Below the pieces are notes generated by a model. That model saw nothing but the letters and a program-made list of their open reading frames with translations. It was not told the DNA's origin and made no database searches. From NCBI GenBank assembly GCA_041737255.1, contig JBGSSB010000042.1, positions 32,129 to 96,128 on the forward strand: a stretch of DNA of 64,000 nucleotides, written 5' to 3'. The position numbers and the translations under genes are program-made. Shown here piece after piece: positions 4,708 to 45,069 of the stretch (positions are counted from its first letter, which is position 1; every line of letters starts with the position of its first letter). The stretch is from Chlamydiales bacterium (GTDB taxonomy: Bacteria; Chlamydiota; Chlamydiia; Chlamydiales; FEN-1388).

Positions 4708-6330
4708 ATGCACATTCAAAATAGCGCAGATTTGAACAATTACTACCAAAATACAGTTGAAAATGAAGTAAAAGAGCCAAAAAGTAATAAAACAAGACTA
4801 ATTATTGTCAAAGACAAGGATGGCTCTGAACATCTAGAAGCCAGAAAGCTTAGTCTCACTGAACGTATCGGTGCTTTTTGTGGTGGCAAAGCTTCTCTTT
4901 CACGCGTGGTGGAGTTTTGTAACCAGAAAAACATGAACTGCGAAGCTCTAGTAAAATTAGTTGATAGCTACAACGATCAACACAAGGGTAAAATTAGCTA
5001 TTCCTATATGATTCACGGAACATCAGCCACTAAAACAGAGCCGTCTATCATGGGTGTAGCCAATTTAGATACAGCCATTGAACGAGCCTTTGATAAGCAA
5101 GACCTAGAGCCTTTAAATAATTTTCTTGTTTCAAAATTTCCCAATGACCCTGATGTGATGAAGAAGTTAATAGACTACTTTAAACAGGCCGTCAAGAAAG
5201 GGCATAAGGATGTAGCTACTGTATTAGTAAAGCGTCTCGATTTAAAAGACGTAAAAGATATGCTATTATCTGCCTGCACGAACGGCGATCTTGAAACTGC
5301 GAAGGCAATTTGTTCAGGAAGGGATGATAACGTCCTCTACAATAAGGCCCAAGCTGCCGACACACCACTCATAAACGCCGTAAGGGAAAACAAGTTGGAA
5401 GTAGTAGAGGTTCTGCTTTCAACAGCGGTTGTTGACCCTACAGTTAAACCATATACCGGCGACGCCTTGCAAGCTGCAAATAGTGATAAACATATTGAAG
5501 TTGCAAAAGCCCTTCTTAATCACCCCAAAATGTCTATATCCCCAGAGAGATTTGTCTTTCTTCTAAACGAATCAATAAAAAATGGGTCAACTGAAATTAC
5601 AAAAGCACTTTGTTCATCAAAATTTGCTAGTCAGGTAAATGAACATGCTGACACACCTCTTATTAGTGCATGTAAAGATAAGAACATTTCGCTTAGCGAG
5701 CGTAAAGCTGTAGTGAAGCTACTGCTGGAAAACACTGGAGACACAATATTTCATGAAAATTCAAATCATCTCGACGCACTATCTTATACCACAGAGCTAC
5801 TTGATGTGTTTACCGAGTTTGCTAGTAGCCGAGCGCCTCTTGCAGACAAAATGAAAGATAAATTACAACTTAAGCAGCTAAAAGAGCTCGCGACAACCTC
5901 AAGTCAAGAGACGAAAGGTAAAAAAATTAATGACCTTAAATCATTACCTAAAATTGATCGTATGGATCTGCAAAATGCCTTCAATGCAGTCCTAGCCCAA
6001 AAAGATGGGCCTTCAAGCATAAAAACACTAACTCAATATGAACGAGCAGCAATACTTTTTGATCTCGTTCGATCGAGCAGAGTTATTACACCTCAAGAAG
6101 CCGACTTGCTAGTTAAAGGGTTAACTAAAGGACAAGTAGCAAGTTCACTCTCTTGGCTTAACAATCAATTATCGAAATTGAACCCAATCAGTTTGGACAA
6201 ACAAACTTTAAAAGTGTCCAGTGAACAGATAATATTGTTAGGAAAAACGCTGATGAAAGCTTGTGCAGACAGCCCTAAATCAACTGAATACGATCAGTTA
6301 GAACGCATGTACAAGGATTTTAAACCATAA
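4708..6330 (+). CDS. Ankyrin-repeat protein, candidate secreted effector
   Basis: 540 aa. Repeated ANK-like units (GDLETAKAICSG..., DTPLINAVRENKLEVVEVLLS..., DALQAANSDKHIEVAKALLNH..., DTPLISACKDK...). No signal peptide. Opposite strand to the flanking opp genes. Confidence 0.75.
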   Translation: MHIQNSADLNNYYQNTVENEVKEPKSNKTRLIIVKDKDGSEHLEARKLSLTERIGAFCGGKASLSRVVEFCNQKNMNCEALVKLVDSYNDQHKGKISYSYMIHGTSATKTEPSIMGVANLDTAIERAFDKQDLEPLNNFLVSKFPNDPDVMKKLIDYFKQAVKKGHKDVATVLVKRLDLKDVKDMLLSACTNGDLETAKAICSGRDDNVLYNKAQAADTPLINAVRENKLEVVEVLLSTAVVDPTVKPYTGDALQAANSDKHIEVAKALLNHPKMSISPERFVFLLNESIKNGSTEITKALCSSKFASQVNEHADTPLISACKDKNISLSERKAVVKLLLENTGDTIFHENSNHLDALSYTTELLDVFTEFASSRAPLADKMKDKLQLKQLKELATTSSQETKGKKINDLKSLPKIDRMDLQNAFNAVLAQKDGPSSIKTLTQYERAAILFDLVRSSRVITPQEADLLVKGLTKGQVASSLSWLNNQLSKLNPISLDKQTLKVSSEQIILLGKTLMKACADSPKSTEYDQLERMYKDFKP

Positions 6331-6352
6331 AAACAAGCATACCACACTGTCC

Positions 6353-6381
6353 GATCACACCGCACATGGCGCGGTGTGATC
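6353..6381. terminator. Bidirectional stem-loop terminator between the convergent ank gene and oppA
   Basis: Perfect 11-bp stem GATCACACCGC/GCGGTGTGATC (6353-6363 and 6371-6381) with a 7-nt loop, followed by a CTTTTTT run. Confidence 0.7.
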
Positions 6382-6392
6382 AGACATCTTTT

Positions 6393-8006
6393 TTACTTCA
6401 CATTGATAAAGTAGGCATCGTCAATATCTACCATTCCCATAGGCGATAGTGTAGCTTGCTCAAAATTATCATTCTTCCCATAAGAGAAGGCAAAGTGAAA
6501 CAATGGCAAGATTGGTGCATCATCCATAAGTACATTTTGTGCGTTTTGTAGCAACGTCATACGACGTACTGGGTTTGCTTCTGCATTAGACTGATTAAGC
6601 AGGCGAGTGTAGTCTGCATTTTCCCAGCCAGTGTAGTTTGTGCCGTTGTCTTTGTACTGAAACACTGACAAAAAGCTCATTGGGTCGTAGTAATCAGCAA
6701 ACCAGGATCCTGCAGCTAAATCATACTCTTCAGCAAAAAATTTATCATAAAACGTATGAGGCACAGAACCTTCAAGCTTTACATCTATATTAAAAGCTGT
6801 TTTCCAGTTTTGGGCTAAGAGCTCTGCAATTTTCTGCATGCGCTCTGATGAGACGTATGACAAAGTAATTTCAGGCAGGTCATTTCGTGTCATCCCCATG
6901 TCAAGCAAGGCTAGCTCAAAAAGCTTGGCAGCTTCAGCTACGTTATAAAGAGGGGGTCTTGATTGTATGCCCATTCCAGGAGGCACTAAAGATCCCGCAG
7001 GCTTTTGATCGCCTTTCATCACTTTAGCAACGATACTTTGGGTATCAGTAGCTAGGCTGAAGGCTTTTCTAAATTTTACATCATTAAAAGGCGCTTTAGT
7101 TAGATTCATTCGTAAAAACTGTGTGCCAGCAGCAGGTAAAAAATGAAGAGCGTTAGTTGTTTTAAGGGCTGCTTGGCCAGCCTCACCTAGAGTTGAAAGA
7201 GGTGCTCCAACCCAGTCAAGATCACCATTTCTAAATGAAGCAAGTGCTGCTTGATCATCCATAAATGATATATGCGCCTTTTCAAGCTTTACCGTTGGAT
7301 GTCCCCAATAATTTGGATTCTTAACAAGTTCCAGCTTTTGATCAGGCATAAATGAAGCTACATTAAAGGGCCCGTTGGACACGCACTGCATTGCATTTTC
7401 ATCTTTAAAGCCTGGATGAGCTTCGGTCCATTTTTGGTGCACAGGCATATATGCAGCCGTTGCTGTGAGCTGTAAAAAGTATGACATTGGGTTTTCGAGG
7501 TTTACAACGAGTGTGGTGTCGTCTAGTGCATAAATGCCAATTTCATCTTGAGTAGTTCGTCCTTCAAAGTAGCTCTGGGCACCCTTTATCGGAAAGAGCA
7601 TATAAGCCATAGGGGCTTTCATATCAGCCCTAAGCATAGACTTCCAGCTATATTCAAAGTCGGATGCGACAACTTTATCACCATTAGACCATTTAGTGTC
7701 ACGAAGCTTAAAGGTATATGTTTTTAAATCAGGGGATATTTGAATGTTCACAGCACAGCCAGGAAAAATCTTTCCATTTTCATCGATATAGGTAAGGCCT
7801 TCAAATATCATACGGGATATATTTGATGTAATAAGGTTGCTCGACAACCTAGGGTCAAGGCTTAATGCCTTTTCTGCCAAGGGCAGGCGCACTTCTTGCT
7901 TTTTAGAATCGGCTACATCTGAAGCGCTTTGGCTTGATTTTGACGTACAACCTGTAACAATACAGGTAGCAAACAGTGTCGCTACACAGCCATTAAAAAG
8001 TTTCAT
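6393..8006 (-). CDS. oppA: Oligopeptide-binding lipoprotein (ABC substrate-binding protein family 5)
   Basis: 537 aa. Lipobox ATCIVTGC. Length and sequence are typical of OppA/DppA solute-binding proteins. Confidence 0.85.
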   Translation of the reverse strand: MKLFNGCVATLFATCIVTGCTSKSSQSASDVADSKKQEVRLPLAEKALSLDPRLSSNLITSNISRMIFEGLTYIDENGKIFPGCAVNIQISPDLKTYTFKLRDTKWSNGDKVVASDFEYSWKSMLRADMKAPMAYMLFPIKGAQSYFEGRTTQDEIGIYALDDTTLVVNLENPMSYFLQLTATAAYMPVHQKWTEAHPGFKDENAMQCVSNGPFNVASFMPDQKLELVKNPNYWGHPTVKLEKAHISFMDDQAALASFRNGDLDWVGAPLSTLGEAGQAALKTTNALHFLPAAGTQFLRMNLTKAPFNDVKFRKAFSLATDTQSIVAKVMKGDQKPAGSLVPPGMGIQSRPPLYNVAEAAKLFELALLDMGMTRNDLPEITLSYVSSERMQKIAELLAQNWKTAFNIDVKLEGSVPHTFYDKFFAEEYDLAAGSWFADYYDPMSFLSVFQYKDNGTNYTGWENADYTRLLNQSNAEANPVRRMTLLQNAQNVLMDDAPILPLFHFAFSYGKNDNFEQATLSPMGMVDIDDAYFINVK

Positions 8007-12813: not shown

Positions 12814-13890
12814 ATGCATTCAGAGGTGCTACTAAGTAGTCTACAGACACTAGCAAATGCAAGTATCAATGAACAAACAGGCCAGCCACATCTTGCTAGG
12901 CGTCTTACATGGCACGGCTATACTCTTACACAAGCCGTCTACCCATCAACGTTTATAACAGCAAACGATCTGCGTCTCTTTCTCGATAAAATAATAAATG
13001 CCATTTGCCGATTAGAGCATGAAAGGCCCTTTTTATTTTTCTCAGTGCGTCTTATCGAAGAAATGACTCCACTAGAAGAGAAAATAAAAAGAGTCTGTGA
13101 GTGGCTTGTAAATCCAGCGCACGCAAATGAAGGGGAGTACTTGCTTTTGCGTAATGTGCAAGAATCGATTCCTACACGATTAGCTCTTCTCGTGCAAAAT
13201 CAGGCTTTAGAAGTCCAAAGAAAAAATGCGTGGAATCTTCTTGAGAGCCCATGTACATTCCATCACTTTTCTCAAATTATTGGCGGCAAATTCAGACAAA
13301 GGCTAGAACAGGGAATCGACCCTAAAATGCCAACGTTTGCCTTCTTGGCAATAGCCTACGCCGCATGTGGCTTTCATTTTGGAATGTACAGGTATACCCA
13401 GCTTGTGACCTATATACAAAGCCTTGAACAGGTTGATCCCTTAAGCCGCGATATGATTTTGCTCGCTGTTATCCATAGAAATATTCTTCACGCACAGCTA
13501 CTGTTACACAATCCACAAAGCAATCAAGATGCTCTTCGTGAAGCTCTAAAAGATTTTTATAGAACACGAAAAACACTTTTAGAAAAACCGACTGGCAACA
13601 TTTTAAAGCAGATGGAAATTGATAGCTATTTGTTGTCATTGTTTGTAGATTTCAAACATGAAATTGCTGGTTTTGAAGTTGTAGACCACAAAGCACGTGC
13701 GGTATGTTTGTGCGTAGGACTTGAAGCGGCAAATGAGATGCAATTACTCGAATCATTTCAAAGATGTCACAATTTAGCGACTCTACACGAGGATGTACTA
13801 GACCCCTTCGAAGAACTAAACTCTCTGCAGCACGTAGGATACTTTCGATACTTCATGTTTCACACCGGCAACCTACCTAAGGGGACTTGA
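12814..13890 (+). CDS. Hypothetical protein
   Basis: 358-aa ORF with an ATG start. No motif recognised. Confidence 0.5.
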   Translation: MHSEVLLSSLQTLANASINEQTGQPHLARRLTWHGYTLTQAVYPSTFITANDLRLFLDKIINAICRLEHERPFLFFSVRLIEEMTPLEEKIKRVCEWLVNPAHANEGEYLLLRNVQESIPTRLALLVQNQALEVQRKNAWNLLESPCTFHHFSQIIGGKFRQRLEQGIDPKMPTFAFLAIAYAACGFHFGMYRYTQLVTYIQSLEQVDPLSRDMILLAVIHRNILHAQLLLHNPQSNQDALREALKDFYRTRKTLLEKPTGNILKQMEIDSYLLSLFVDFKHEIAGFEVVDHKARAVCLCVGLEAANEMQLLESFQRCHNLATLHEDVLDPFEELNSLQHVGYFRYFMFHTGNLPKGT

Positions 13891-13896
13891 TGTCAC

Positions 13897-13938
13897 AATC
13901 GGGGTCCAATCGGGGTCAGACCCGTTAATCCGTTAATC
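13897..13938 (+). repeat. REP-like end, orientation A
   Basis: aatcGGGGTCcaatcGGGGTCAGACCCGTTAATCCGTTAATC. Confidence 0.9.
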
Positions 13939-14108
13939 TTGGAATTTTTGGCCAATTACTCCATTATACGTCTCGGCAATAATGGGCCGGATATTTTTTT
14001 CTAAGAATCACACAGATATATCCATGTATTCTGGCTATCGCTACATGATCTATAACGTAAAGAAATAATAACCCAAAAATTGTGAACACGTGACCAATAG
14101 TGCAAAAA
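13939..14108 (+). pseudogene. Remnant of a REP-associated tyrosine transposase gene
   Basis: cggcaataatgggccggatatttttttc (13974-14001) matches the intact gene's cggcaataacggccaggatatttttttc (LRGNNGQDIFF). A later fragment translates to YIHVFWL versus YIHAFCL in the intact gene. Stops and deletions interrupt it. Confidence 0.7.
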
Positions 14109-14172
14109 GATTAACGGATTAACGGGTCTGACCCCAATATGACCCCAATATTGACCCCAATATATTGACCCC
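14109..14172 (-). repeat. REP-like end, orientation B, with four GACCCC iterons
   Basis: GATTAACGGATTAACGGGTCTGACCCCaatatGACCCCaatattGACCCCaatatattGACCCC. Confidence 0.9.
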
Positions 14173-15443: not shown

Positions 15444-15485
15444 AATCGGGGTCAAATCGGGGTCAGACCCGTCAATCCGGTAATC
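15444..15485 (+). repeat. REP-like end, orientation A
   Basis: aatcGGGGTCaaatcGGGGTCAGACCCGTCAATCCGGTAATC. Confidence 0.9.
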
Positions 15486-15553
15486 TTGAATATTGTTAGC
15501 CGGCAAGAAATTTTATATTTACGTTTATTCGTTAAATAAATAACCTCTACTCC

Positions 15554-16513
15554 ATGAGCAGAAAGCCTCGTATTCACAAACCAGCCGGCTTTTACCACGT
15601 TATGCTACGCGGCAATAACGGCCAGGATATTTTTTTCACAGAGTCAGACCGATATCGTTTTTGTCTCTTTCTGCAAGAGGGAACTCTACGATTTGGACAT
15701 TATATTCACGCATTCTGTTTAATGACGAACCACGTACATTTGGTAATTCAGCCAGGGATTACTCCCTTGTCGCAGATTGTAAAGCGCTTAGCTTCATGTT
15801 ATGCTATGTACATAAACCGGGTTCATGCAAGAATTGGTCATCTTTTTCAAGGCAGATTTAAAGCCATTCTTGTTGATGATAGTAAATACCTAGCAGAACT
15901 TATTCGCTATATTCATCTCAATCCTGTTCGTGCTGGAATGGTAAAAGCACCCGAAGGATATCTTTGGAGTAGCCACCAGACCTACTTAGGCCTTAACCAT
16001 ATCCCGTGGTTAACTCAAGAGACGCTTATGAAAAAATTCGATAATTCTGCCACTCATTCTGCTCGTAAATGCTATCTGGCCTTTATCAACGAGGGTATAG
16101 GGCTGCCTATACCCAAAGAAGTCTACTTGGGCTTTTATCGGGGAGCTATAGTAGGTGACAATAAATTTAGCGATGAAATAGCAAAGGCTGTTCGGCTAAG
16201 CGAAAAGCAAAATTCACAGCTAACAACAATCGACATCCTGAATCAAGTAGCTTCTCTGCTGGAAATTTCGGTTGCTGCCATGCAAAGCCGTGCCAAACAA
16301 TCCAGACTGGCCCAAGGCAGGGGGATAGCAGCTCTTATCACAAAAGAACATCCCGGGCTAACCATTCAGGCATTAGCAAACGAGCTCAATAAAGACCCAG
16401 ACGCGCTCTCTAAATCAGCCATTGCAGTAGAAACAATGGCAATTCAGGATGAAAAACTTAAAGAAGCAATTGACAAGATTCGGCAACAATTAGCGAAAGT
16501 GAGCCAAGATTAA
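15554..16513 (+). CDS. REP-associated tyrosine transposase (RAYT; IS200/IS605-like HUH Y1 transposase) with a C-terminal HTH-like extension
   Basis: 319 aa. HUH motif TNHVHLVIQP (HVH codons at 15731-15739). Catalytic-Tyr motif RYIHLNPVRAGMV, typical of COG1943/RayT. The C-terminal roughly 100 aa resemble a DnaA-C-like DNA-binding domain (unverified). The stop codon lies inside the right REP. Confidence 0.85.
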   Translation: MSRKPRIHKPAGFYHVMLRGNNGQDIFFTESDRYRFCLFLQEGTLRFGHYIHAFCLMTNHVHLVIQPGITPLSQIVKRLASCYAMYINRVHARIGHLFQGRFKAILVDDSKYLAELIRYIHLNPVRAGMVKAPEGYLWSSHQTYLGLNHIPWLTQETLMKKFDNSATHSARKCYLAFINEGIGLPIPKEVYLGFYRGAIVGDNKFSDEIAKAVRLSEKQNSQLTTIDILNQVASLLEISVAAMQSRAKQSRLAQGRGIAALITKEHPGLTIQALANELNKDPDALSKSAIAVETMAIQDEKLKEAIDKIRQQLAKVSQD

Positions 16514-16554
16514 CGGATTAACGGGTCTGACCCCTATCTATGACCCCTATCTAG
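16508..16554 (-). repeat. REP-like end, orientation B, with two GACCCC iterons
   Basis: GATTAACGGATTAACGGGTCTGACCCCtatctatGACCCCtatctag. Confidence 0.9.
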
Positions 16555-36939: not shown

Positions 36940-36948
36940 GAAATACCA

Positions 36949-37001
36949 TTCACCGCAGAGAAAAAATCTTTTATGTTTATCTACCGGTTCTCTGCGGTGA
37001 A
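36949..37001. terminator. Long stem-loop between convergent leuS and the PCD gene
   Basis: Perfect 14-bp stem TTCACCGCAGAGAA/TTCTCTGCGGTGAA with a 25-nt loop, followed by TGCGTTTTC. Confidence 0.6.
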
Positions 37002-37023
37002 TGCGTTTTCAATCTTCCCTCTA

Positions 37024-39650: not shown

Positions 39651-41417
39651 ATGATTCCGGAGAAAACTTCACAAATGCAAACGGAAGAAGCGCTTGATCT
39701 TTTTCGGGCTCGAGAAGTCTTTCGAAGCGATCAAAAACTGAACGGACGCAAAGTTGAACCTAGAGTTTTACTAACTCTTGTGGGCAAAGGTCAAAATAGA
39801 CACCTTGAGGCTCGAGAAGACACCGTCTTTGAGCGTGTCAAAACACTTTTTTTTAGAAAAGATTATAAGCTGGAAGAAATTCAGACATTTCTTGAGCCAT
39901 CTACACATAGTGCTAAAGAAATCATCGCCTCTAAAATCACGAACCGTGATCACAACCCCAAAAAAAATATAATACAACGGATTTTCGAAGCAATAATTGC
40001 GCGTGGCGAAAAAAATGAATCTACCCCACAAAAGCCCACTAACACACAATCCAAGTCTGAAATAGTCCCACCAAAAGAAGACGCTGACGAAGTAACAACT
40101 CTTATTGAAATGCTTACGAATATTAAAATTTCAAACCGCGAAGAGCTTGTGCCCTATCAAGCACAACTTGAACAACTCGAAAAACAATACCCGAAACGAT
40201 CTGAAGACATACAAGTAGCAAAGCAAATCGTAACTGAAATTGCACACTCGCTACAAAATGTTCAAGTAGACGCACCACCAGCTAACGCTACATATGGAAT
40301 AGTTAATCCAGGACTCAATGCCTGCTTTTTAAATGCAACGCTTCAGGGTCTTGGCAGATCTCCAGTATTTCTTAACCTACTGCATGAGCGTCAAAAAGAG
40401 CTCACAACACTCCTCGAAGAAGTTTTTAAAAGAGAAGATCTTGCCCAAGATATAGACTATTTTGCAGATGACATATACGATCTCTCAAAACAAAATCTTG
40501 ATGATTCTGATGACTATCTCCAAGGCAACAGACTTAATGATGAAGGCAAACTCTTTGTCCAGCTCGTTATTGTAACCAAGCTCTGCGAAATTTATGAGCA
40601 GATACAATCAAACACTATTGATCTTGATACAATCCAAACCCTTCGTTCACTTATCATTGCCACTGGCTTTAGAGAACGGGACACAAGCCTCTATAGCCAA
40701 GAAGATGCGGGCATGCTTTGCATGCACCTTCTTGATAGCATTGGAATACAACCTTTCACCTATAAAATGAACATTGCCTACCCAGCAAGCTTTCCAATAC
40801 CCGCACTTGATAGACAGGGTGACGTAGCCAACATCTACCCTATTCAGCTAGCTAACGCCAAAGCAGGAGCCTCTATACAAGATCTTGTACGAGATACTAT
40901 AGTTGAGGAAGAGGTAGACAAAAAGGCGATAATAGATTCAAAACAAATACTTACACGCAAACAAAAAGAACAAATTAAAGCACTACCTAAAGAATCAACT
41001 ATCACAACCTTGCAGTCAATAGCCTTTCCTAAGGGAAAAGAGCCCAAAATGCTTCCTTTATGGCTGAAACGCTACACCGCTACTGGAGAAAAAATAACTA
41101 CGAAGATTACACCTTCATACTCTCTTGATTTCCCTTTGGCAGGAAAGAACGATCAGATGGCTCGTTACCGCCTTGTTGCTGTAGCCGTTCACGAAGGAAC
41201 AACGTTAAAAAAAGGCCATTTTTACACCTACGCACCTGTTGTTGACACACAAGACCAAGCCAGCTGGGTTTGCTACAACGACTCTAGCGTCACTGCTTCA
41301 CCTAATAAAACGTCATTTGACGCAGTAGCAGAAAAAGGCTACATCTACTACTACGAATTTGTAGAATACGTAAAAATAGGCACGCCTACACCTAACATTG
41401 ACTTAGCAAAAGATTAA
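39651..41417 (+). CDS. Eukaryotic-type ubiquitin-specific protease (USP/UCH family C19 deubiquitinase)
   Basis: 588 aa. Cys box GIVNPGLNACFLNATLQGL (Cys codon at 40323-40325). His box YRLVAVAVHEGTTLKKGHFYTYA, followed by WVCYNDSSV. Confidence 0.8.
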   Translation: MIPEKTSQMQTEEALDLFRAREVFRSDQKLNGRKVEPRVLLTLVGKGQNRHLEAREDTVFERVKTLFFRKDYKLEEIQTFLEPSTHSAKEIIASKITNRDHNPKKNIIQRIFEAIIARGEKNESTPQKPTNTQSKSEIVPPKEDADEVTTLIEMLTNIKISNREELVPYQAQLEQLEKQYPKRSEDIQVAKQIVTEIAHSLQNVQVDAPPANATYGIVNPGLNACFLNATLQGLGRSPVFLNLLHERQKELTTLLEEVFKREDLAQDIDYFADDIYDLSKQNLDDSDDYLQGNRLNDEGKLFVQLVIVTKLCEIYEQIQSNTIDLDTIQTLRSLIIATGFRERDTSLYSQEDAGMLCMHLLDSIGIQPFTYKMNIAYPASFPIPALDRQGDVANIYPIQLANAKAGASIQDLVRDTIVEEEVDKKAIIDSKQILTRKQKEQIKALPKESTITTLQSIAFPKGKEPKMLPLWLKRYTATGEKITTKITPSYSLDFPLAGKNDQMARYRLVAVAVHEGTTLKKGHFYTYAPVVDTQDQASWVCYNDSSVTASPNKTSFDAVAEKGYIYYYEFVEYVKIGTPTPNIDLAKD

Positions 41418-41422
41418 GAAAC

Positions 41423-41899
41423 CTAAAAGATAAATTGAAATTTCCCTCTCAGCCGCAATTGAGAGAAAAAATTTCTTCTCACAAATCCTTCAATTTTCAA
41501 TAGGGCTGTCTCTAGATCGTCCGAAGCATAGTCCTTGTCTTGGGGGGCTAGATTTTCAGAGTCAATATCAAACTTCAAAAAGGCAAACCCTTTTGTGGCT
41601 ATCCAGCATTCGACTTGGTCATTTTCAGGATAAGAAATTGGAATTAGATGATCAAATTTTCTGTGTAACTCATGAGGAAAAAAAAGCGCAAAGCCACCGG
41701 TATGTAAAAGTATTCGAACATTTTTATCTATTATACGATGCCCACGAAGTTCACCAAATTTTTTGCCTGTCCATGCTGCAACCTCATCAATAGACTCTGT
41801 TGTCTGGGCTTGTACTACCTGGGCTTGTACTGCATGGATTTCTGTTACCTGCAATACGGGCTGAAAAAATGAACCTAAAAATGTTACTGGAAAACTCAC
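41423..41899 (-). CDS. Hypothetical protein
   Basis: 158-aa ORF with no motif. Ends in ...GKFQFIF. Confidence 0.45.
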   Translation of the reverse strand: MSFPVTFLGSFFQPVLQVTEIHAVQAQVVQAQTTESIDEVAAWTGKKFGELRGHRIIDKNVRILLHTGGFALFFPHELHRKFDHLIPISYPENDQVECWIATKGFAFLKFDIDSENLAPQDKDYASDDLETALLKIEGFVRRNFFSQLRLRGKFQFIF

Positions 41900-41958
41900 A
41901 CAATCTCCTGATTATTTACGAATTTTCCAAAGATCATACCACAGCCTTAGGGTTTACC

Positions 41959-42603
41959 TTAAGAGCAAATACCACTGCAGGCAACATCCATAGCACTATA
42001 ACTGCCCGCAGAAACCACTGTTGCAAGGATATCCCCAATAAAAAAGGTGACAGTAGGTGCAGCCATAACAACTATGGCAGGTGCCATGCAAGCGACGATA
42101 AGTGATGCACCACTTAAAGGAGCTGTCATGACAAGCCCACACTTAAGAGCGTCTGCAACATATCCCATGGCGTAGTTACAAAAGTAGGCCTTGGCAAAAA
42201 AGCCCAGCGCAAAACTTGACACGCTAAATGCCATATCACGCCATAGGGGAGGGAACTTAGGATGATCTTCTCCTAATACCCTTGTGCGAAAAATATCCCG
42301 AATAGCCCTAGCTGTTTCTTTAATAGCAAATGTTGTCATATCGGCCATGAAGAGTGTAACTGGTATAGCAGTCATAGTGCCAAGCTGTGTGCCAACAACA
42401 GAGGCAAAAAAACCTCCAAGCTTTGGAAGGGCAATGTCAGTAATGGTCGCCTGCAAGCTAGTGCGCACATTACCAAGAGCATAGTAGAGGTAGGTATTTT
42501 TGATAGCAAAACTGACAGTTGAGTTTGTTATAACCCCAGCAACGTATGAAACAACCATTATAAGCATCCTTCGTAAAAAAGGTGATGCATACCACGACAG
42601 CAT
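41959..42603 (-). CDS. Hypothetical polytopic membrane protein
   Basis: 214 aa with multiple hydrophobic segments. No family recognised. Confidence 0.5.
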   Translation of the reverse strand: MLSWYASPFLRRMLIMVVSYVAGVITNSTVSFAIKNTYLYYALGNVRTSLQATITDIALPKLGGFFASVVGTQLGTMTAIPVTLFMADMTTFAIKETARAIRDIFRTRVLGEDHPKFPPLWRDMAFSVSSFALGFFAKAYFCNYAMGYVADALKCGLVMTAPLSGASLIVACMAPAIVVMAAPTVTFFIGDILATVVSAGSYSAMDVACSGICS

Positions 42604-42666
42604 AAATCTTTCATTAAGATTTTTTGGCGGGGGTCAGAGCTGGCGTGAAACAAATGTTATTTAATT

Positions 42667-42756
42667 TTTACCGCAGAGAAAACAGCCGAGAACTCAGAGA
42701 AGAGCCCTGAGAGGTATTGTTTTCTCCGCGTTCTCGGCTGCTTTCTCCGCGGTAAA
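42667..42756. repeat. Imperfect 27-bp inverted repeat pair (palindromic element A)
   Basis: TTTACCGCAGAGAAAACAGCCGAGAAC (42667-42693) versus GTTCTCGGCTGCTTTCTCCGCGGTAAA (42730-42756). Two transition mismatches and a 36-nt spacer. Confidence 0.85.
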
Positions 42757-42787
42757 TAATATTTTCATGGCTATTTCGAAAATCTAG

Positions 42788-43040
42788 TCCTGTTTTCCCC
42801 GCGGTAGCGGGGGCAGTGGGTAGCCCCGCGTGAATTGGAAGGGCTGGGACCTGAAATGGAACGTGGGGTTGAAGCATATTATAACCATGGAGCTGTGGTA
42901 GCAGCGATACTTTAGTGTGTCGCTGCTACCGCAGCTCTTGTATTTTTCATCATACAACCCCACGTTCCACTACAGACCGACTGGCCTTTCATTGCACGCA
43001 GGGCTAATAAATCCTCCCGCTACCGCGGGGAAAACAAAAC
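42788..43040. repeat. Roughly 250-bp foldback palindrome (element B), centred near 42913
   Basis: Matched arm blocks: GTTTTCCCCGCGGTAGCGGG (42792-42811) with CCCGCTACCGCGGGGAAAAC (43016-43035); TGGAACGTGGGGTTG with CAACCCCACGTTCCA; GAGCTGTGGTAGCAGCGATAC with GTGTCGCTGCTACCGCAGCTC. Confidence 0.85.
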
Positions 43041-43061
43041 GGAATTTAGCAGAGGCACCAA

Positions 43062-43104
43062 GATTAACGGATTGACGGGTCTGACCCCCATGCGTGACCC
43101 CAAT
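43062..43104 (-). repeat. Solo REP-like end, orientation B
   Basis: GATTAACGGATTGACGGGTCTGACCCCcatgcgtGACCCCaatgcg. Same core as the RAYT ends about 27 kb away. Confidence 0.85.
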
Positions 43105-43109
43105 GCGAG

Positions 43110-43559
43110 TTAAGAGTTTTTCATCTGCTGGTAGTGATACTTTAATTTGTGGACAAAGCAAAATTCAATTGCAATTTCTTTTAATTGTTCGTGAAGAAAT
43201 TGTAACCACTGTTCCTCTATTTTAAAGCAATAAACCGCTGTTTTAAATCGACCAAATGCACCACTTCCACGAATAGCATGAATAAGTCGCTCTTGTATCT
43301 CATCATTATCAACTGTATAGCAAAAGTCTTCCATGATTTTGTATTTATTGATATCCCACTCATTAGGGAGTAAAATGAATTGAGAAGGATCTGGTTCTTG
43401 ATCAAATTGCTCATCGATATCTAAAAAATCTTCACCGGCCATCTGATAGGTGATCTTTCCATCTTCAAGATTGAGAAAGTGGTTGGACTCATTTGATGTC
43501 ATATCCAGGGCATCAATAAGATCGTTTAAATTAACTAAGGTCTGTCCAGATGCTTTCAT
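43110..43559 (-). CDS. UPF0158-like hypothetical protein
   Basis: 149 aa, acidic. IRGSGAFGRFKTAV resembles the conserved UPF0158 motif (recognised by eye). Confidence 0.5.
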   Translation of the reverse strand: MKASGQTLVNLNDLIDALDMTSNESNHFLNLEDGKITYQMAGEDFLDIDEQFDQEPDPSQFILLPNEWDINKYKIMEDFCYTVDNDEIQERLIHAIRGSGAFGRFKTAVYCFKIEEQWLQFLHEQLKEIAIEFCFVHKLKYHYQQMKNS

Positions 43560-43793
43560 AGTATACCACCCATCATGAAGCTCAGATTGTAAGAAAATAA
43601 CAATAATTCAGCAAGAAGACTGCCTAAATCTTCAGTAGGTGTGCGCGTAAACACCTCAACAATATTTTTAATCCTTGACAACTAGGAGCACATAGAAAAT
43701 GTATTTTAGATAGATTGATTTAATAAAATGCTGTAGTCTAGTTGTAAAAAACAAACCTAACTTGCGCGGCATCTATTACGCCGAAGGATTAAA

Positions 43794-44753
43794 ATGATTT
43801 ATAAGTCAGTTTTGCTAATCACATGTGTGAGTTTAGTTTCTGGTTGTGCAACAGTTGCAAAACAGTCACAAGCAGTAGAACCTCCAGTTTCACAGCAGCA
43901 GCAAATAGAGGCGCAGCAGCACGCCCAGTTGCCACAGATGAAAAAATACAAGCAAAAAATTGTAATTGGCCGTTTTACGAACGAAACCAATTATGGCAAG
44001 GTTTTACTCACTGATCAAAATTACGACCCCATCGGAAAGCAGGCCAGTGACATGTTATCTACCCGTTTGATACAGTCTGGTCGCTTTCTTGTTTTTGAGC
44101 GACCTGATTTAAATAAAATTGAAGCCGAACAAAAAATACTAAATCAAAATGATTTGGTTGGAGCTGACACAGTTATTTTAGGTTCAGTTACTGAATTTGG
44201 ACGTTCTGTAACAGGAAAAAAAGGCTTCCTATCCGACACCAAACTACAAACCGCCAAAGCTAAAGTTGAAATTCGACTTGTTGACACCAAAACTGGCTTG
44301 GCATTCTTTTCAACAACCGGTGCAGGCCAAGCTACAACAGAATCTGGGGACGTTTTAGGCTTTGGAAGCAGGGCGGCCTACGATGCCACACTTAATGACA
44401 AGGTTATTGCAGCTGCAATATCTGACTTAATTAACAATTTGATAGTGACACTTCAGAATCGCCCCTGGACAACCGATATATTAGAAATTCAAGCAAATCA
44501 GGTGTTTATTAGCGGCGGAAAAAGCCAAGGAATAAAAGAAGGCGATGTGCTTCAGATTTTAAAAAAAGTAAATTCAGTTAAAAGTCAGCAGTCAGGTTTT
44601 ATGATAGATTTACCACCTGAAAAGGTTGCCACGATCAAGATTATAAGTTTTTTTGGCAACAGCGAAACAAACGAAGGATCCGTCGCTGAGATTATAGATG
44701 GAACACTGGATGCACAAACTGTAGACAAATATATTGTAAAAGAGGTCGAGTAA
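43794..44753 (+). CDS. CsgG-family lipoprotein (curli-type secretion channel homolog) with a C-terminal extension
   Basis: 319 aa. Lipobox LVSGC. CsgG-like core (IVIGRFTNET..., LIQSGRFLVFERPDL..., ILGSVTEFG...) plus an extra C-terminal domain of about 80 aa. Confidence 0.75.
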   Translation: MIYKSVLLITCVSLVSGCATVAKQSQAVEPPVSQQQQIEAQQHAQLPQMKKYKQKIVIGRFTNETNYGKVLLTDQNYDPIGKQASDMLSTRLIQSGRFLVFERPDLNKIEAEQKILNQNDLVGADTVILGSVTEFGRSVTGKKGFLSDTKLQTAKAKVEIRLVDTKTGLAFFSTTGAGQATTESGDVLGFGSRAAYDATLNDKVIAAAISDLINNLIVTLQNRPWTTDILEIQANQVFISGGKSQGIKEGDVLQILKKVNSVKSQQSGFMIDLPPEKVATIKIISFFGNSETNEGSVAEIIDGTLDAQTVDKYIVKEVE

Positions 44754-44754
44754 A

Positions 44755-45069
44755 ATGATAAAAAATATTGTATTACTATTCAGCATGCTTTTACTTGTTT
44801 GTGGGTGCCGCTACCCAACAACGAATGTTTCTACAGGAGATTCTCGTCCAACGCTTAGTTTTAACAATGCCCCAAAAGGCTCATATGTTTGGGTAGATGG
44901 TATAAACATGGGCCATGCTGCTCAGTATAATGGCAACCCAAAAGTATTGATTGTTCAGCCAGGGACTCATGAAGTAAAGGTTACTCTAGAAAATATCCTG
45001 CTTACAAAACAGACGATATTTGTAGAGAGCCAAAATAAAGTGATCAACATACAATATCCAGAGCTCTAG
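44755..45069 (+). CDS. Small PEGA-like lipoprotein
   Basis: 104 aa. Lipobox LLVCGC. PEGA-like pattern APKGSYVWVDGINMG...LIVQPGTHEVKV. Starts 1 nt after the csgG-like stop. Confidence 0.6.
   Translation: MIKNIVLLFSMLLLVCGCRYPTTNVSTGDSRPTLSFNNAPKGSYVWVDGINMGHAAQYNGNPKVLIVQPGTHEVKVTLENILLTKQTIFVESQNKVINIQYPEL

Follow-up and report, generated by a model that had tools for sequence, protein, structure and literature searches.

The window, by which we mean the whole 64,000-nt stretch of a Chlamydiales contig (JBGSSB010000042.1) analysed here and to whose positions all coordinates refer, contains a 506-nt intergenic region of interest (42604-43109) flanked by two minus-strand genes: 41959-42603, encoding a 214-aa protein that belongs to no Pfam family, and 43110-43559, encoding a UPF0158 protein. 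The region comprises a hairpin of ~95 bp and an imperfect palindrome of ~250 bp, both confirmed with a repeat finder, and then a repeat end (43061-43107). A first-pass annotation had seen no convincing open reading frame (ORF) here, and we concur, as the ORFs that overlap the region are only 52-69 aa long and every one of them lies on the palindromes. Judged by sequence comparison, the ~250-bp palindrome is composed of two diverged copies of a conserved unit of ~120 nt, inverted and joined head-to-head as a dimer, and it is the relationship of this unit to a Y1 transposase, TnpA, that concerns us here. Each unit consists, in this order, of mini-hairpin A (5-bp stem, loop T[A/T/G]CC), an AT-rich spacer, a core, CTA followed by ~10 nt, and mini-hairpin B (5 bp, with a loop as in A). 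The core, CCCCACGTTCCAYTWCAGGCC-TNCC-GGCCTTTCATTKCACGCGGGG, folds as an imperfect hairpin in which pyrimidine-pyrimidine mismatches are conserved; the loops of all three hairpins are TNCC, read as GGNA on the opposite strand. The features of the region, including two that relate to a terminal inverted repeat (TIR) of another system, are the following:

42629-42638, plus strand: GGGGGTCAGA, matching the TIR core at 43080-43089 perfectly over 10 nt in inverted orientation.
42662-42761: hairpin 1 (~95 bp), arms 42662-42701 / 42722-42761, 40 nt, 85% complementary.
42780-42842 / 42985-43047: palindrome blocks, 63 nt, 76%.
42851-42871 / 42955-42975: palindrome blocks, 90%.
42890-42910 / 42917-42937: palindrome blocks, 90%.
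42791-42912, minus strand: left arm, unit copy L (nhmmer E 3.3e-27, 92.2 bits).
42797-42812: B mini-hairpin of the left arm, CCCCGC-GGTA-GCGGGG.
~42820-42871: core hairpin of the left arm, degenerate.
42892-42905: A mini-hairpin of the left arm, GCTGT-GGTA-GCAGC.
42913-42914: palindrome centre, where the two A ends meet; the loop of the hairpin, TTTAGT, occupies 42911-42916.
42915-43036, plus strand: right arm, unit copy R (nhmmer E 1.9e-29, 99.5 bits).
42922-42935: A mini-hairpin of the right arm, GCTGC-TACC-GCAGC.
~42957-43003: core of the right arm.
43016-43029: B mini-hairpin of the right arm, CCCGC-TACC-GCGGG, mirror of the left-arm B.
43061-43107, plus strand: solo TIR CAAGATTAACGGATTGACGGGTCTGACCCCCATGCGTGACCCCAATGCG, with the GGGGWSAS motif on the minus strand; it abuts the UPF0158 stop codon.

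Both inverted repeats reported in the first-pass annotation are present. The 27-bp pair within 42667-42756 has its core at 42667-42693 / 42730-42756, and the long palindrome, said to be centred at about 42913 with arms of ~120 nt, has its centre at 42913/42914 and a gapped alignment of ~125 nt per arm, in which well-conserved blocks alternate with diverged stretches. Identity between the arms is 69% in the unit alignment and 76% in the ungapped blocks; the A ends lie 2 nt apart in profile coordinates, with a hairpin loop of 6 nt. No further occurrence of the block sequences was found within the 64 kb. Folding of the 506 nt as RNA yielded -254.7 kcal/mol for the plus strand (shuffles -153, z -15.5) and -251.8 kcal/mol for the minus strand (shuffles -144, z -18.1), and none of the 100 shuffles matched the native folding. 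The asymmetry of G-U pairs that had been noticed between the two hairpins is real: the central hairpin is fully paired on the plus strand only and the ~95-bp hairpin on the minus strand only, where the 27 contiguous pairs of its core form with G-U pairs included. The GC-rich hairpin CCCCGC-GGTA-GCGGGG exists as described, but the GTAG that had been read across its loop and stem is not a conserved foot, as it appears only where a G follows the GGTA loop.

Short-read contigs often break at these palindromes: L001 stops in the loop of the ~95-bp hairpin, L012 begins near a palindrome centre and L032 changes strand at hairpin B (loci outside the window carry L numbers). Such breaks would suit an assembly artefact, i.e. 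palindromic read-through or a chimera, a concern raised together with the original description of the palindrome. We give this explanation virtually no credence, because an artefact would yield perfect arms, whereas those in the window are only 69-76% identical, with indels, and thus differ at ~24-31% of positions. Moreover, the Logan assembly SRR28170464, which terminates in the loop of the ~95-bp hairpin, reproduces 42694-44962 exactly (100% identity), and homologous dimers are present in unrelated samples. BLASTN searches with the 506 bp gave no match among plasmids and phages, nor was any obtained in scans of genome contigs with the terminal 20-mer CCGCTACCGCGGGGAAAACA and of viral contigs with the terminal 16-mer.

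Relatives of the arms outside the window, a search for which the first-pass annotation had proposed, were found by both pattern and profile searches. The two-block pattern CGTTCCAYTWCAG-N(14-24)-CACRCRGGGCTA, derived from three copies (both window arms and L012), matched five metagenome contigs against ~0.3 estimated by chance, two of them with paired inverted matches. A nucleotide profile of the unit identified exactly two copies within the 64-kb window and further copies in L012, L014-L021, L022/L023/L025, L028 and L029-L032, with E-values from 1e-33 to 1e-20 for the closer ones. The unit is present at 13 other independent loci from metagenome-assembled genomes (MAGs) and metagenomes, where it occurs solo, head-to-head, tail-to-tail or split by a group II intron. 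In L029, L030 and L032 the similarity stops at the 3' foot of hairpin B, and we therefore placed the outer boundary of the unit there. L012, from a MAG labelled Chlamydiales bacterium (41% GC), contains beside a TIR a 79-nt stretch that matches the right arm (L012:87-165, 76% identical to 42958-43035), in a gene context unlike that of the window. Direct repeats, AGGCCCGGCCCCC(A/G)AAT(A/T)AC, bracket the unit in L012 (14-35 and 231-252) and could represent another repeat family or a duplicated target. Finally, a six-frame pseudo-protein profile of the unit, compared with 5.8 billion proteins, gave only three matches, which led to L019-L021 and to a transposase.

Inverted units flank an ORF of 150/151 aa in L015 (266-721), L021 (9805-10257), L028 (10001-10453) and L030-L032; L019 has the same unit-tnpA-unit layout with a frameshifted gene, and a unit-flanked Y1 transposase occurs in at least five loci. 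The A ends face tnpA at a distance of 6-10 nt from its start and stop codons, and the whole element measures ~710 bp. The flanked ORF matches the Pfam family Y1_Tnp (PF01797, E 3e-28) and exceeds the cutoff of the NCBIfam IS200 model NF033573 (72 bits, cutoff 55), with 29-35 bits for the RAYT model NF047646 (cutoff 80). The proteins from L015 (151 aa) and L021 (150 aa) display the motifs PDHVH/PDHIH, AWQEGY and YIQNQKQHH/YIQNQAQHH. The published features of TnpA-Y1 subclass 1.2 are DH[IV]H, WQ, YIKNQKEHH (Y---Q--HH), a median length of 148 aa and a conserved C-terminal tail (PMC6006769, Table 1), and the unit-flanked TnpA would accordingly be a member of this subclass, an assignment made by motifs and length and not by a tree. 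Subclass 1.2 was published without repetitive extragenic palindromic sequences (REPs) or properties of insertion sequences (IS), its function and substrate being left open (Quentin, Siguier, Chandler & Fichant 2018, PMC6006769). The TnpA family comprises 623 members at E<=1e-10 in the protein collection, and all those with an organism name are labelled Chlamydiales, Chlamydiae or Parachlamydiales. Many of the members are found on contigs of 0.6-1.2 kb, typical of collapsed repeats. The contigs of P0040 and of P0038 represent one locus each across different samples, and for P0040 this makes the gene look fixed and single-copy. In the 64-kb window tblastn detected neither a subclass 1.2 tnpA nor a remnant of one.

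The units also occur in a range of other arrangements. In L016 two units form a tail-to-tail dimer whose arms span 165 nt (95%), and L017 has a head-to-head dimer like that of the window, in which a group II intron sits precisely at the junction of the A ends (208-2131, with GTGCG at 208 and domain V/VI at 2061-2131). In L020 a unit lies 3' of the ORF of an intron maturase (intron at ~5500-7130), and in L014 an intron (281-501) lies beside a long GAGA-rich hairpin. Solo units accompanied by a C-terminal remnant of tnpA are found in L014 and L018, tail-to-tail doublets on either side of tnpA in L030, and tandem extra units on one side of tnpA in L022 and L028. The position that corresponds to the palindrome centre of the window is occupied by the ~450-bp tnpA gene in full-length relatives and by the group II intron in L017.

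From these comparisons we are fairly confident that the palindrome represents a gene-less head-to-head dimer of the ends of a Y1-transposase element, an old and probably inactive relic. As the dimer has the end-to-end geometry of the element minus its gene, the window copy is most likely a non-autonomous derivative consisting of left end (LE) and right end (RE), or, equivalently, a REPIN-like head-to-head doublet. The absence of tnpA from the window, together with the identity of only 69-76% between the arms, makes an old, non-autonomous relic resembling a REPIN or a miniature inverted-repeat transposable element (MITE) the most likely state, and the copy would probably be inactive. The proposal of a foldback, transposase-less, MITE-like element in the first-pass annotation was thus essentially right, the arms being homologous to tnpA-flanking units, and the suspected kinship to the biology of REPs and Y1 transposases is borne out by the units that flank a Y1 TnpA in relatives.

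Several observations weigh against this interpretation. The seven contigs of P0040 represent a single locus, which resembles single-copy vertical inheritance, as in RAYT genes, and not an active IS. With only one locus with units within the 64 kb, multi-copy status in this genome is conjectural. Neither a target-site signature nor an exact cleavage site could be defined, and the window cores are degenerate on DNA folding, though A and B are intact. LE and RE types are not separated in the identity matrix, and a classification of the window arms as LE-type or RE-type was rejected for want of such clusters. No experiment ties subclass 1.2 proteins to any DNA substrate, and, as the ends are full inverted copies, unlike those of canonical IS200/IS605 elements, a transfer of the IS608 mechanism is an extrapolation. 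As to its origin, the dimer could be due to deletion of tnpA, to adjacent insertion of two units or to inverted duplication. The last of these leads to an account without any transposase, in which a solo unit with its flank underwent local inverted duplication by template switching at a replication hairpin, followed by decay. The complementary arms of L016 and L017 run 40-55 nt past the unit (165-nt arms, 95%), for which duplication of unit plus flank is a better fit than two separate insertions, and the arms in the window share 7 nt (GAAAACA) outside hairpin B. We nevertheless regard this account as unlikely for the window palindrome, since A ends placed head-to-head and 2-6 nt apart have the exact geometry of the ends around tnpA, and since several genomes have both head-to-head and tail-to-tail dimers, a feature of REP families too (PMC3733652). 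It also touches only the origin of the dimer and not the identity of the unit as the end of a Y1 element.

To characterize the structure of the unit we used a covariation alignment (A4) of 14 units with four helices. The helices are paired in 95.5% of cells, as compared with 29-51% when the 3' partners were slid, and nine pairs vary on both sides (three in A, four in B), which was reached in none of 500 shuffles. Watson-Crick pairs account for 292 of the 308 cells, with two G-T and eight A-C cells. The stems vary between copies (GTCGC/GCGAC, GCTGC/GCAGC, GCAGT/ACTGC, ATCAC/GTGAT, CCCGC/GCGGG) and the loops stay TNCC, in the variants TACC, TTCC and TGCC; DNA folding reproduced the three hairpins in L015. 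Watson-Crick pairing implies that the structure is kept on both strands, as DNA hairpins would be, and covariation that is almost wholly of this type favours DNA hairpins over RNA. A-C cells are slightly in excess, which hints at most at tolerance at the RNA level on the strand with GGNA loops.

Alternatively, the region could be a long structured RNA, either a small RNA (sRNA) or the 5' leader of the minus-strand gene for the 214-aa protein, with the unit as an RNA motif. The folding z-scores are extreme on both strands, the core is strongly conserved and its internal loops are rich in purines on the strand with GGNA loops, and among the cells other than Watson-Crick A-C (8) exceeds G-T (2), which means tolerance of wobble pairs on the sense strand of the tnpA upstream region. 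In full elements the unit in minus orientation forms the 5' leader of tnpA, with hairpin A 6-10 nt from the ATG, and IS200 uses a leader structure together with an antisense sRNA (PMC4513863). We consider the RNA explanation very unlikely all the same. Searches of Rfam at gathering and E-value thresholds, on the window and on five loci, identified no family for the region, the best scores being those of generic miRNA-hairpin models and of DUF3800-VIII (20.8 bits, E 0.6). With 95% of the cells Watson-Crick, the structure is equally good on both strands; the units stand in both orientations relative to neighbouring genes and form head-to-head and tail-to-tail dimers, which one would not expect of an RNA gene; the two window hairpins, by their G-U asymmetries, indicate opposite strands; and within the region no promoter-like site was detected on the minus strand. 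The structured RNA that had been offered as an alternative in the first-pass annotation is therefore not supported, there being no Rfam match and the covariation running from one Watson-Crick pair to another.

Other identities tried for the region were rejected. An attC/integron site would have R'/R'' core sites and an integrase, and neither was found; the match to a CRISPR repeat is a chance one of 14.5 bits; no reverse transcriptase lies nearby that would suit a retron msr/msd; and the sole good terminator-like site is on the plus strand, which disagrees with an intrinsic terminator of the flanking genes, both on the minus strand.

If the palindrome consists of Y1-element ends, a mechanism can be proposed by analogy. 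As in the biochemistry of IS200/IS605 and RAYT, the hairpins would be recognised by the Y1 enzyme where the DNA is single-stranded at the replication fork, and the enzyme, like IS200/IS605 and TnpA-REP enzymes, could cleave and rejoin the DNA beside them; units or doublets might thereby be copied or moved in trans. The hairpins may also attract group II introns that target DNA stem-loops. Introns of this kind are known (PMC10190682), which is why the insertions in L017, L020 and L014 fit the scheme.

The repeat end next to the palindrome was described in the first-pass annotation as a solo REP(B) at 43062. A repeat end is indeed present at 43061-43107, but it belongs to a second, unrelated Y1 system (TIRYT/TIRtron). 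The repeat has five copies in the window, the others being at 13887-13940, 14107-14160, 15446-15495 and 16507-16551. The last two of these are inverted around a 319-aa ORF (15554-16513) and both contain GGGGTCAG, which fits GGGGWSAS. The ORF combines a Y1_Tnp core (PF01797), with NHVH and YIHLNP, and a helix-turn-helix tail similar to Bac_DnaA_C (PF08299); its best NCBIfam match is the RAYT model, with 63 bits (cutoff 80). The TIRtron/TIRYT arrangement and the TIR motif GGGGWSAS were described by Di Nocera et al. 2013 (PMC3733652), and TIRYT was placed in subclass 2.1, for which no REP-like repeats were found (Quentin et al. 2018, PMC6006769). As the repeats are inverted around a TIRYT ORF, "REP(B)" can be identified as a solo TIR from a Y1 system of known type; 15446-16551 differs from the published arrangement in nothing essential and is a new member, with solo and doublet TIRs dispersed. 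The complete TIRtron has inverted repeats of ~50 nt with tandem GGGGTCA and lies between two genes for transporters of the major facilitator superfamily, which may be halves of a duplicated or interrupted locus. A gene-less TIR doublet at 13887-14160 (arms of 54 nt at 85%, interior of 166 nt) is a REPIN- or MITE-like derivative of the TIRtron. In a genome scan the TIR 19-mer gave 7 single matches against ~9 estimated by chance, true TIRs being found only in L012 (264-307) and L009 (5161-5195), and a scan of viral contigs with the same 19-mer gave no match.

A core-like site had been noted on the other side of the palindromes, at 42630-42640, and with it the idea of a REP-bounded cargo element. 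The site exists as GGGGGTCAGA (42629-42638), a perfect 10-nt inverted match, but the rest of the TIR is absent. The TIR-core pattern has six matches with <=1 mismatch in the window against 1.49 expected; besides the GGGGGTCAGA pair, four of them are in TIR copies. One could imagine that 42629-43107 is a transposase-less element between two inverted TIRs of the GGGGTCAG type, with the palindromes as cargo, moved by the 319-aa TIRYT protein (15554-16513). The perfect match of 42629-42638 to 43080-43089 agrees with this, as does the end of homology with the 88%-identical relative L002 at ~42625, 4 nt from the 10-nt match; a genuine TIR doublet with a 166-nt interior exists at 13887-14160, and the adjacency of unit and TIR recurs in L012. 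A truncated TIR bracketing the segment is thus possible, on the strength of just 10 nt, and GGGGGTCAGA may be the remnant of a second TIR. We judge the bracketed element to be quite unlikely, because its left "end" is just 10 nt long and both the CCCGTTAATCCGTTAATC part and the second GGGGTCA repeat, the other ~40 nt of the TIR, are missing, because the "cargo" consists of the paired ends of another Y1 element and is found without any TIR in L014-L021, L028 and L029-L032, and because the spacing of unit and TIR is 95 nt in L012, where the left side is outside view, as compared with 25 nt in the window. The cargo element is therefore not the main story at this locus, where the arms themselves are the candidate ends of a different Y1 element.

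In the ~95-bp hairpin, each arm is built of two ~21-nt tandem copies of the motif ACCGCGGrGAAArCA; in the units of the window, this motif corresponds to the 3' half of hairpin B with its flank (the outer B end). This sequence has five matches with <=3 mismatches, all at this locus, against 0.28 expected in the window, and no sequence homolog of the hairpin was found in any fetched locus. We suggest that the ~95-bp hairpin is probably a by-product of the unit system. Its likeness to the long GAGA-rich hairpin of L014 (787-989) was considered and set aside as stylistic only. Another hairpin, at 36945-37005, right after the stop codon of the leucyl-tRNA synthetase gene, has the foot TTCACCGCAGAGAA in common with the ~95-bp hairpin, is followed by GCGTTTTC and may serve as a terminator. 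A separate family of long, near-perfect hairpins with GTGCCCG repeats is found in L016 (3884-4024 and 8156-8232) and L021 (2678-2826), so that, judging by these sequences, several hairpin-repeat families appear in the genomes of L016 and L021. Finally, 51563-51673 (minus strand) matches domains D1-D4 of a group II intron (RF01999, 44 bits). It has no adjoining unit, and downstream there is no reverse-transcriptase ORF and instead an AAA_14/DUF4143 gene; this is probably a truncated group II intron.

The gene order at the locus differs from that in all relatives. In L003-L006, which contain relatives of the 214-aa gene (64-69% identity), the upstream spacer is 120-230 bp long, the neighbours are others and neither repeat is present; in the closest relative, L002 (88% aa identity), nucleotide homology stops at ~42625. 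The NCBI protein P0001 (199 aa) starts at 42558, 15 codons downstream of the start of the longest ORF (42603). The longer start is plausible, because the upstream ATG is conserved in L002; being only 26 nt from the repeat region, it would leave little room for a promoter of the gene's own. Downstream of the 214-aa gene, ORFs on both strands overlap at 41423-42105, and in L003-L006 a convergent gene of 145-146 aa overlaps the end of the homolog of the 214-aa gene; a copy of this convergent gene, decayed or called differently, may be present in the window. The window has ~40% GC, encodes RNase Y and has two lineage-specific repeat families in common with a Chlamydiales MAG. It also encodes eukaryote-like proteins, a 588-aa ubiquitin C-terminal hydrolase (UCH; 39651-41417) and an ankyrin-repeat protein (4708-6330), which fit an intracellular lifestyle. 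Together, these traits suggest an environmental chlamydia as the most likely source of the window.

The unit dimer accounts for a puzzling structured intergenic region of 500 bp and for the assembly breaks there. The copy in the window is probably a dead relic that affects neighbouring genes incidentally at most, and its interest lies in the family link, as subclass 1.2, whose substrate was left open in the 2018 classification, gains a candidate DNA partner with three hairpins and a shared TNCC loop. The family spans states from IS-like (710 bp, paired ends, decayed) to REPtron-like (fixed gene, clusters, gene-less doublets), a range that bears on the origin of REP/RAYT from IS200-like elements. 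In chlamydial MAGs, the units mark rearrangement points and landing sites of group II introns.

No report of repeats associated with subclass 1.2 was found in the open-access literature, and the link between the ~120-nt unit and the subclass 1.2 transposase seems to be undescribed. Among the closest parallels are REP doublets with RAYT. REP doublets with RAYT (the REPtron) were reportedly also described by Nunvar in 2010 and by Ton-Hoang in 2012. As in REPINs, inverted doublets of hairpin repeats make one long hairpin (Bertels & Rainey 2011, PMC3116915; Di Nocera 2013, PMC3733652). As in the REPtron, both dimer types exist (head-to-head in the window and L017, tail-to-tail in L016), a Y1 gene is flanked by inverted repeats, sometimes in doublets or clusters (L030, L028, L022; the window has no tnpA), and the gene can be single-copy at a fixed locus (P0040). 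However, a REP is a single palindrome of 20-40 nt, whereas the unit has ~120 nt and three hairpins; the REP has a conserved 5' GT[AG]G foot, in place of which the unit has a conserved TNCC/GGNA loop; and the REPtron enzyme is a class 2 TnpA-REP, whereas the unit-flanked enzyme scores below the cutoff of the RAYT model and passes the IS200 model. The IS200 group, on the other hand, shares with our elements a length of ~710 bp, a single Y1 TnpA of ~150 aa that passes NF033573, structured ends, a hairpin directly 5' of the start codon, and decayed and ORF-less copies of the PATE/MITE kind. Here the differences lie in the ends and in the enzyme: canonical IS200/IS605 ends have distinct subterminal hairpins on the same strand and no inverted repeats, whereas ours are a single 120-nt unit repeated in inverted orientation (identity within a locus 69-98%), and the flanked TnpA has the signature of subclass 1.2 (Y---Q--HH and C-terminal tail) instead of subclass 1.1. 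With subclass 1.2 as published (PMC6006769) it agrees in length (150 versus 148 aa), in motifs and in low copy number where visible; what differs is the occurrence on chlamydial contigs of conserved, structured, inverted units, also as gene-less dimers. The window copy has the inverted arms and the lack of an ORF of a classical DDE-type MITE, but no direct repeat flanks 42791-43036. Targeting by introns of the group IIC type (PMC10190682) resembles the situation in L017, where the intron lies exactly after mini-hairpin A; the window copy is intron-free. We put at about even the chances that subclass 1.2 has, in environmental chlamydiae, cognate ~120-nt units with three hairpins and TNCC loops, which form head-to-head and tail-to-tail doublets and REPtron-like clusters, serve as homing sites of group II introns and stand as an intermediate on the way from IS200 to RAYT/REP, the window containing one of the gene-less doublets. 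Taken by its features, the system behaves as a REPtron/REPIN does and has the appearance of an IS200 with inverted ends, yet departs from both in some of the features that define them.

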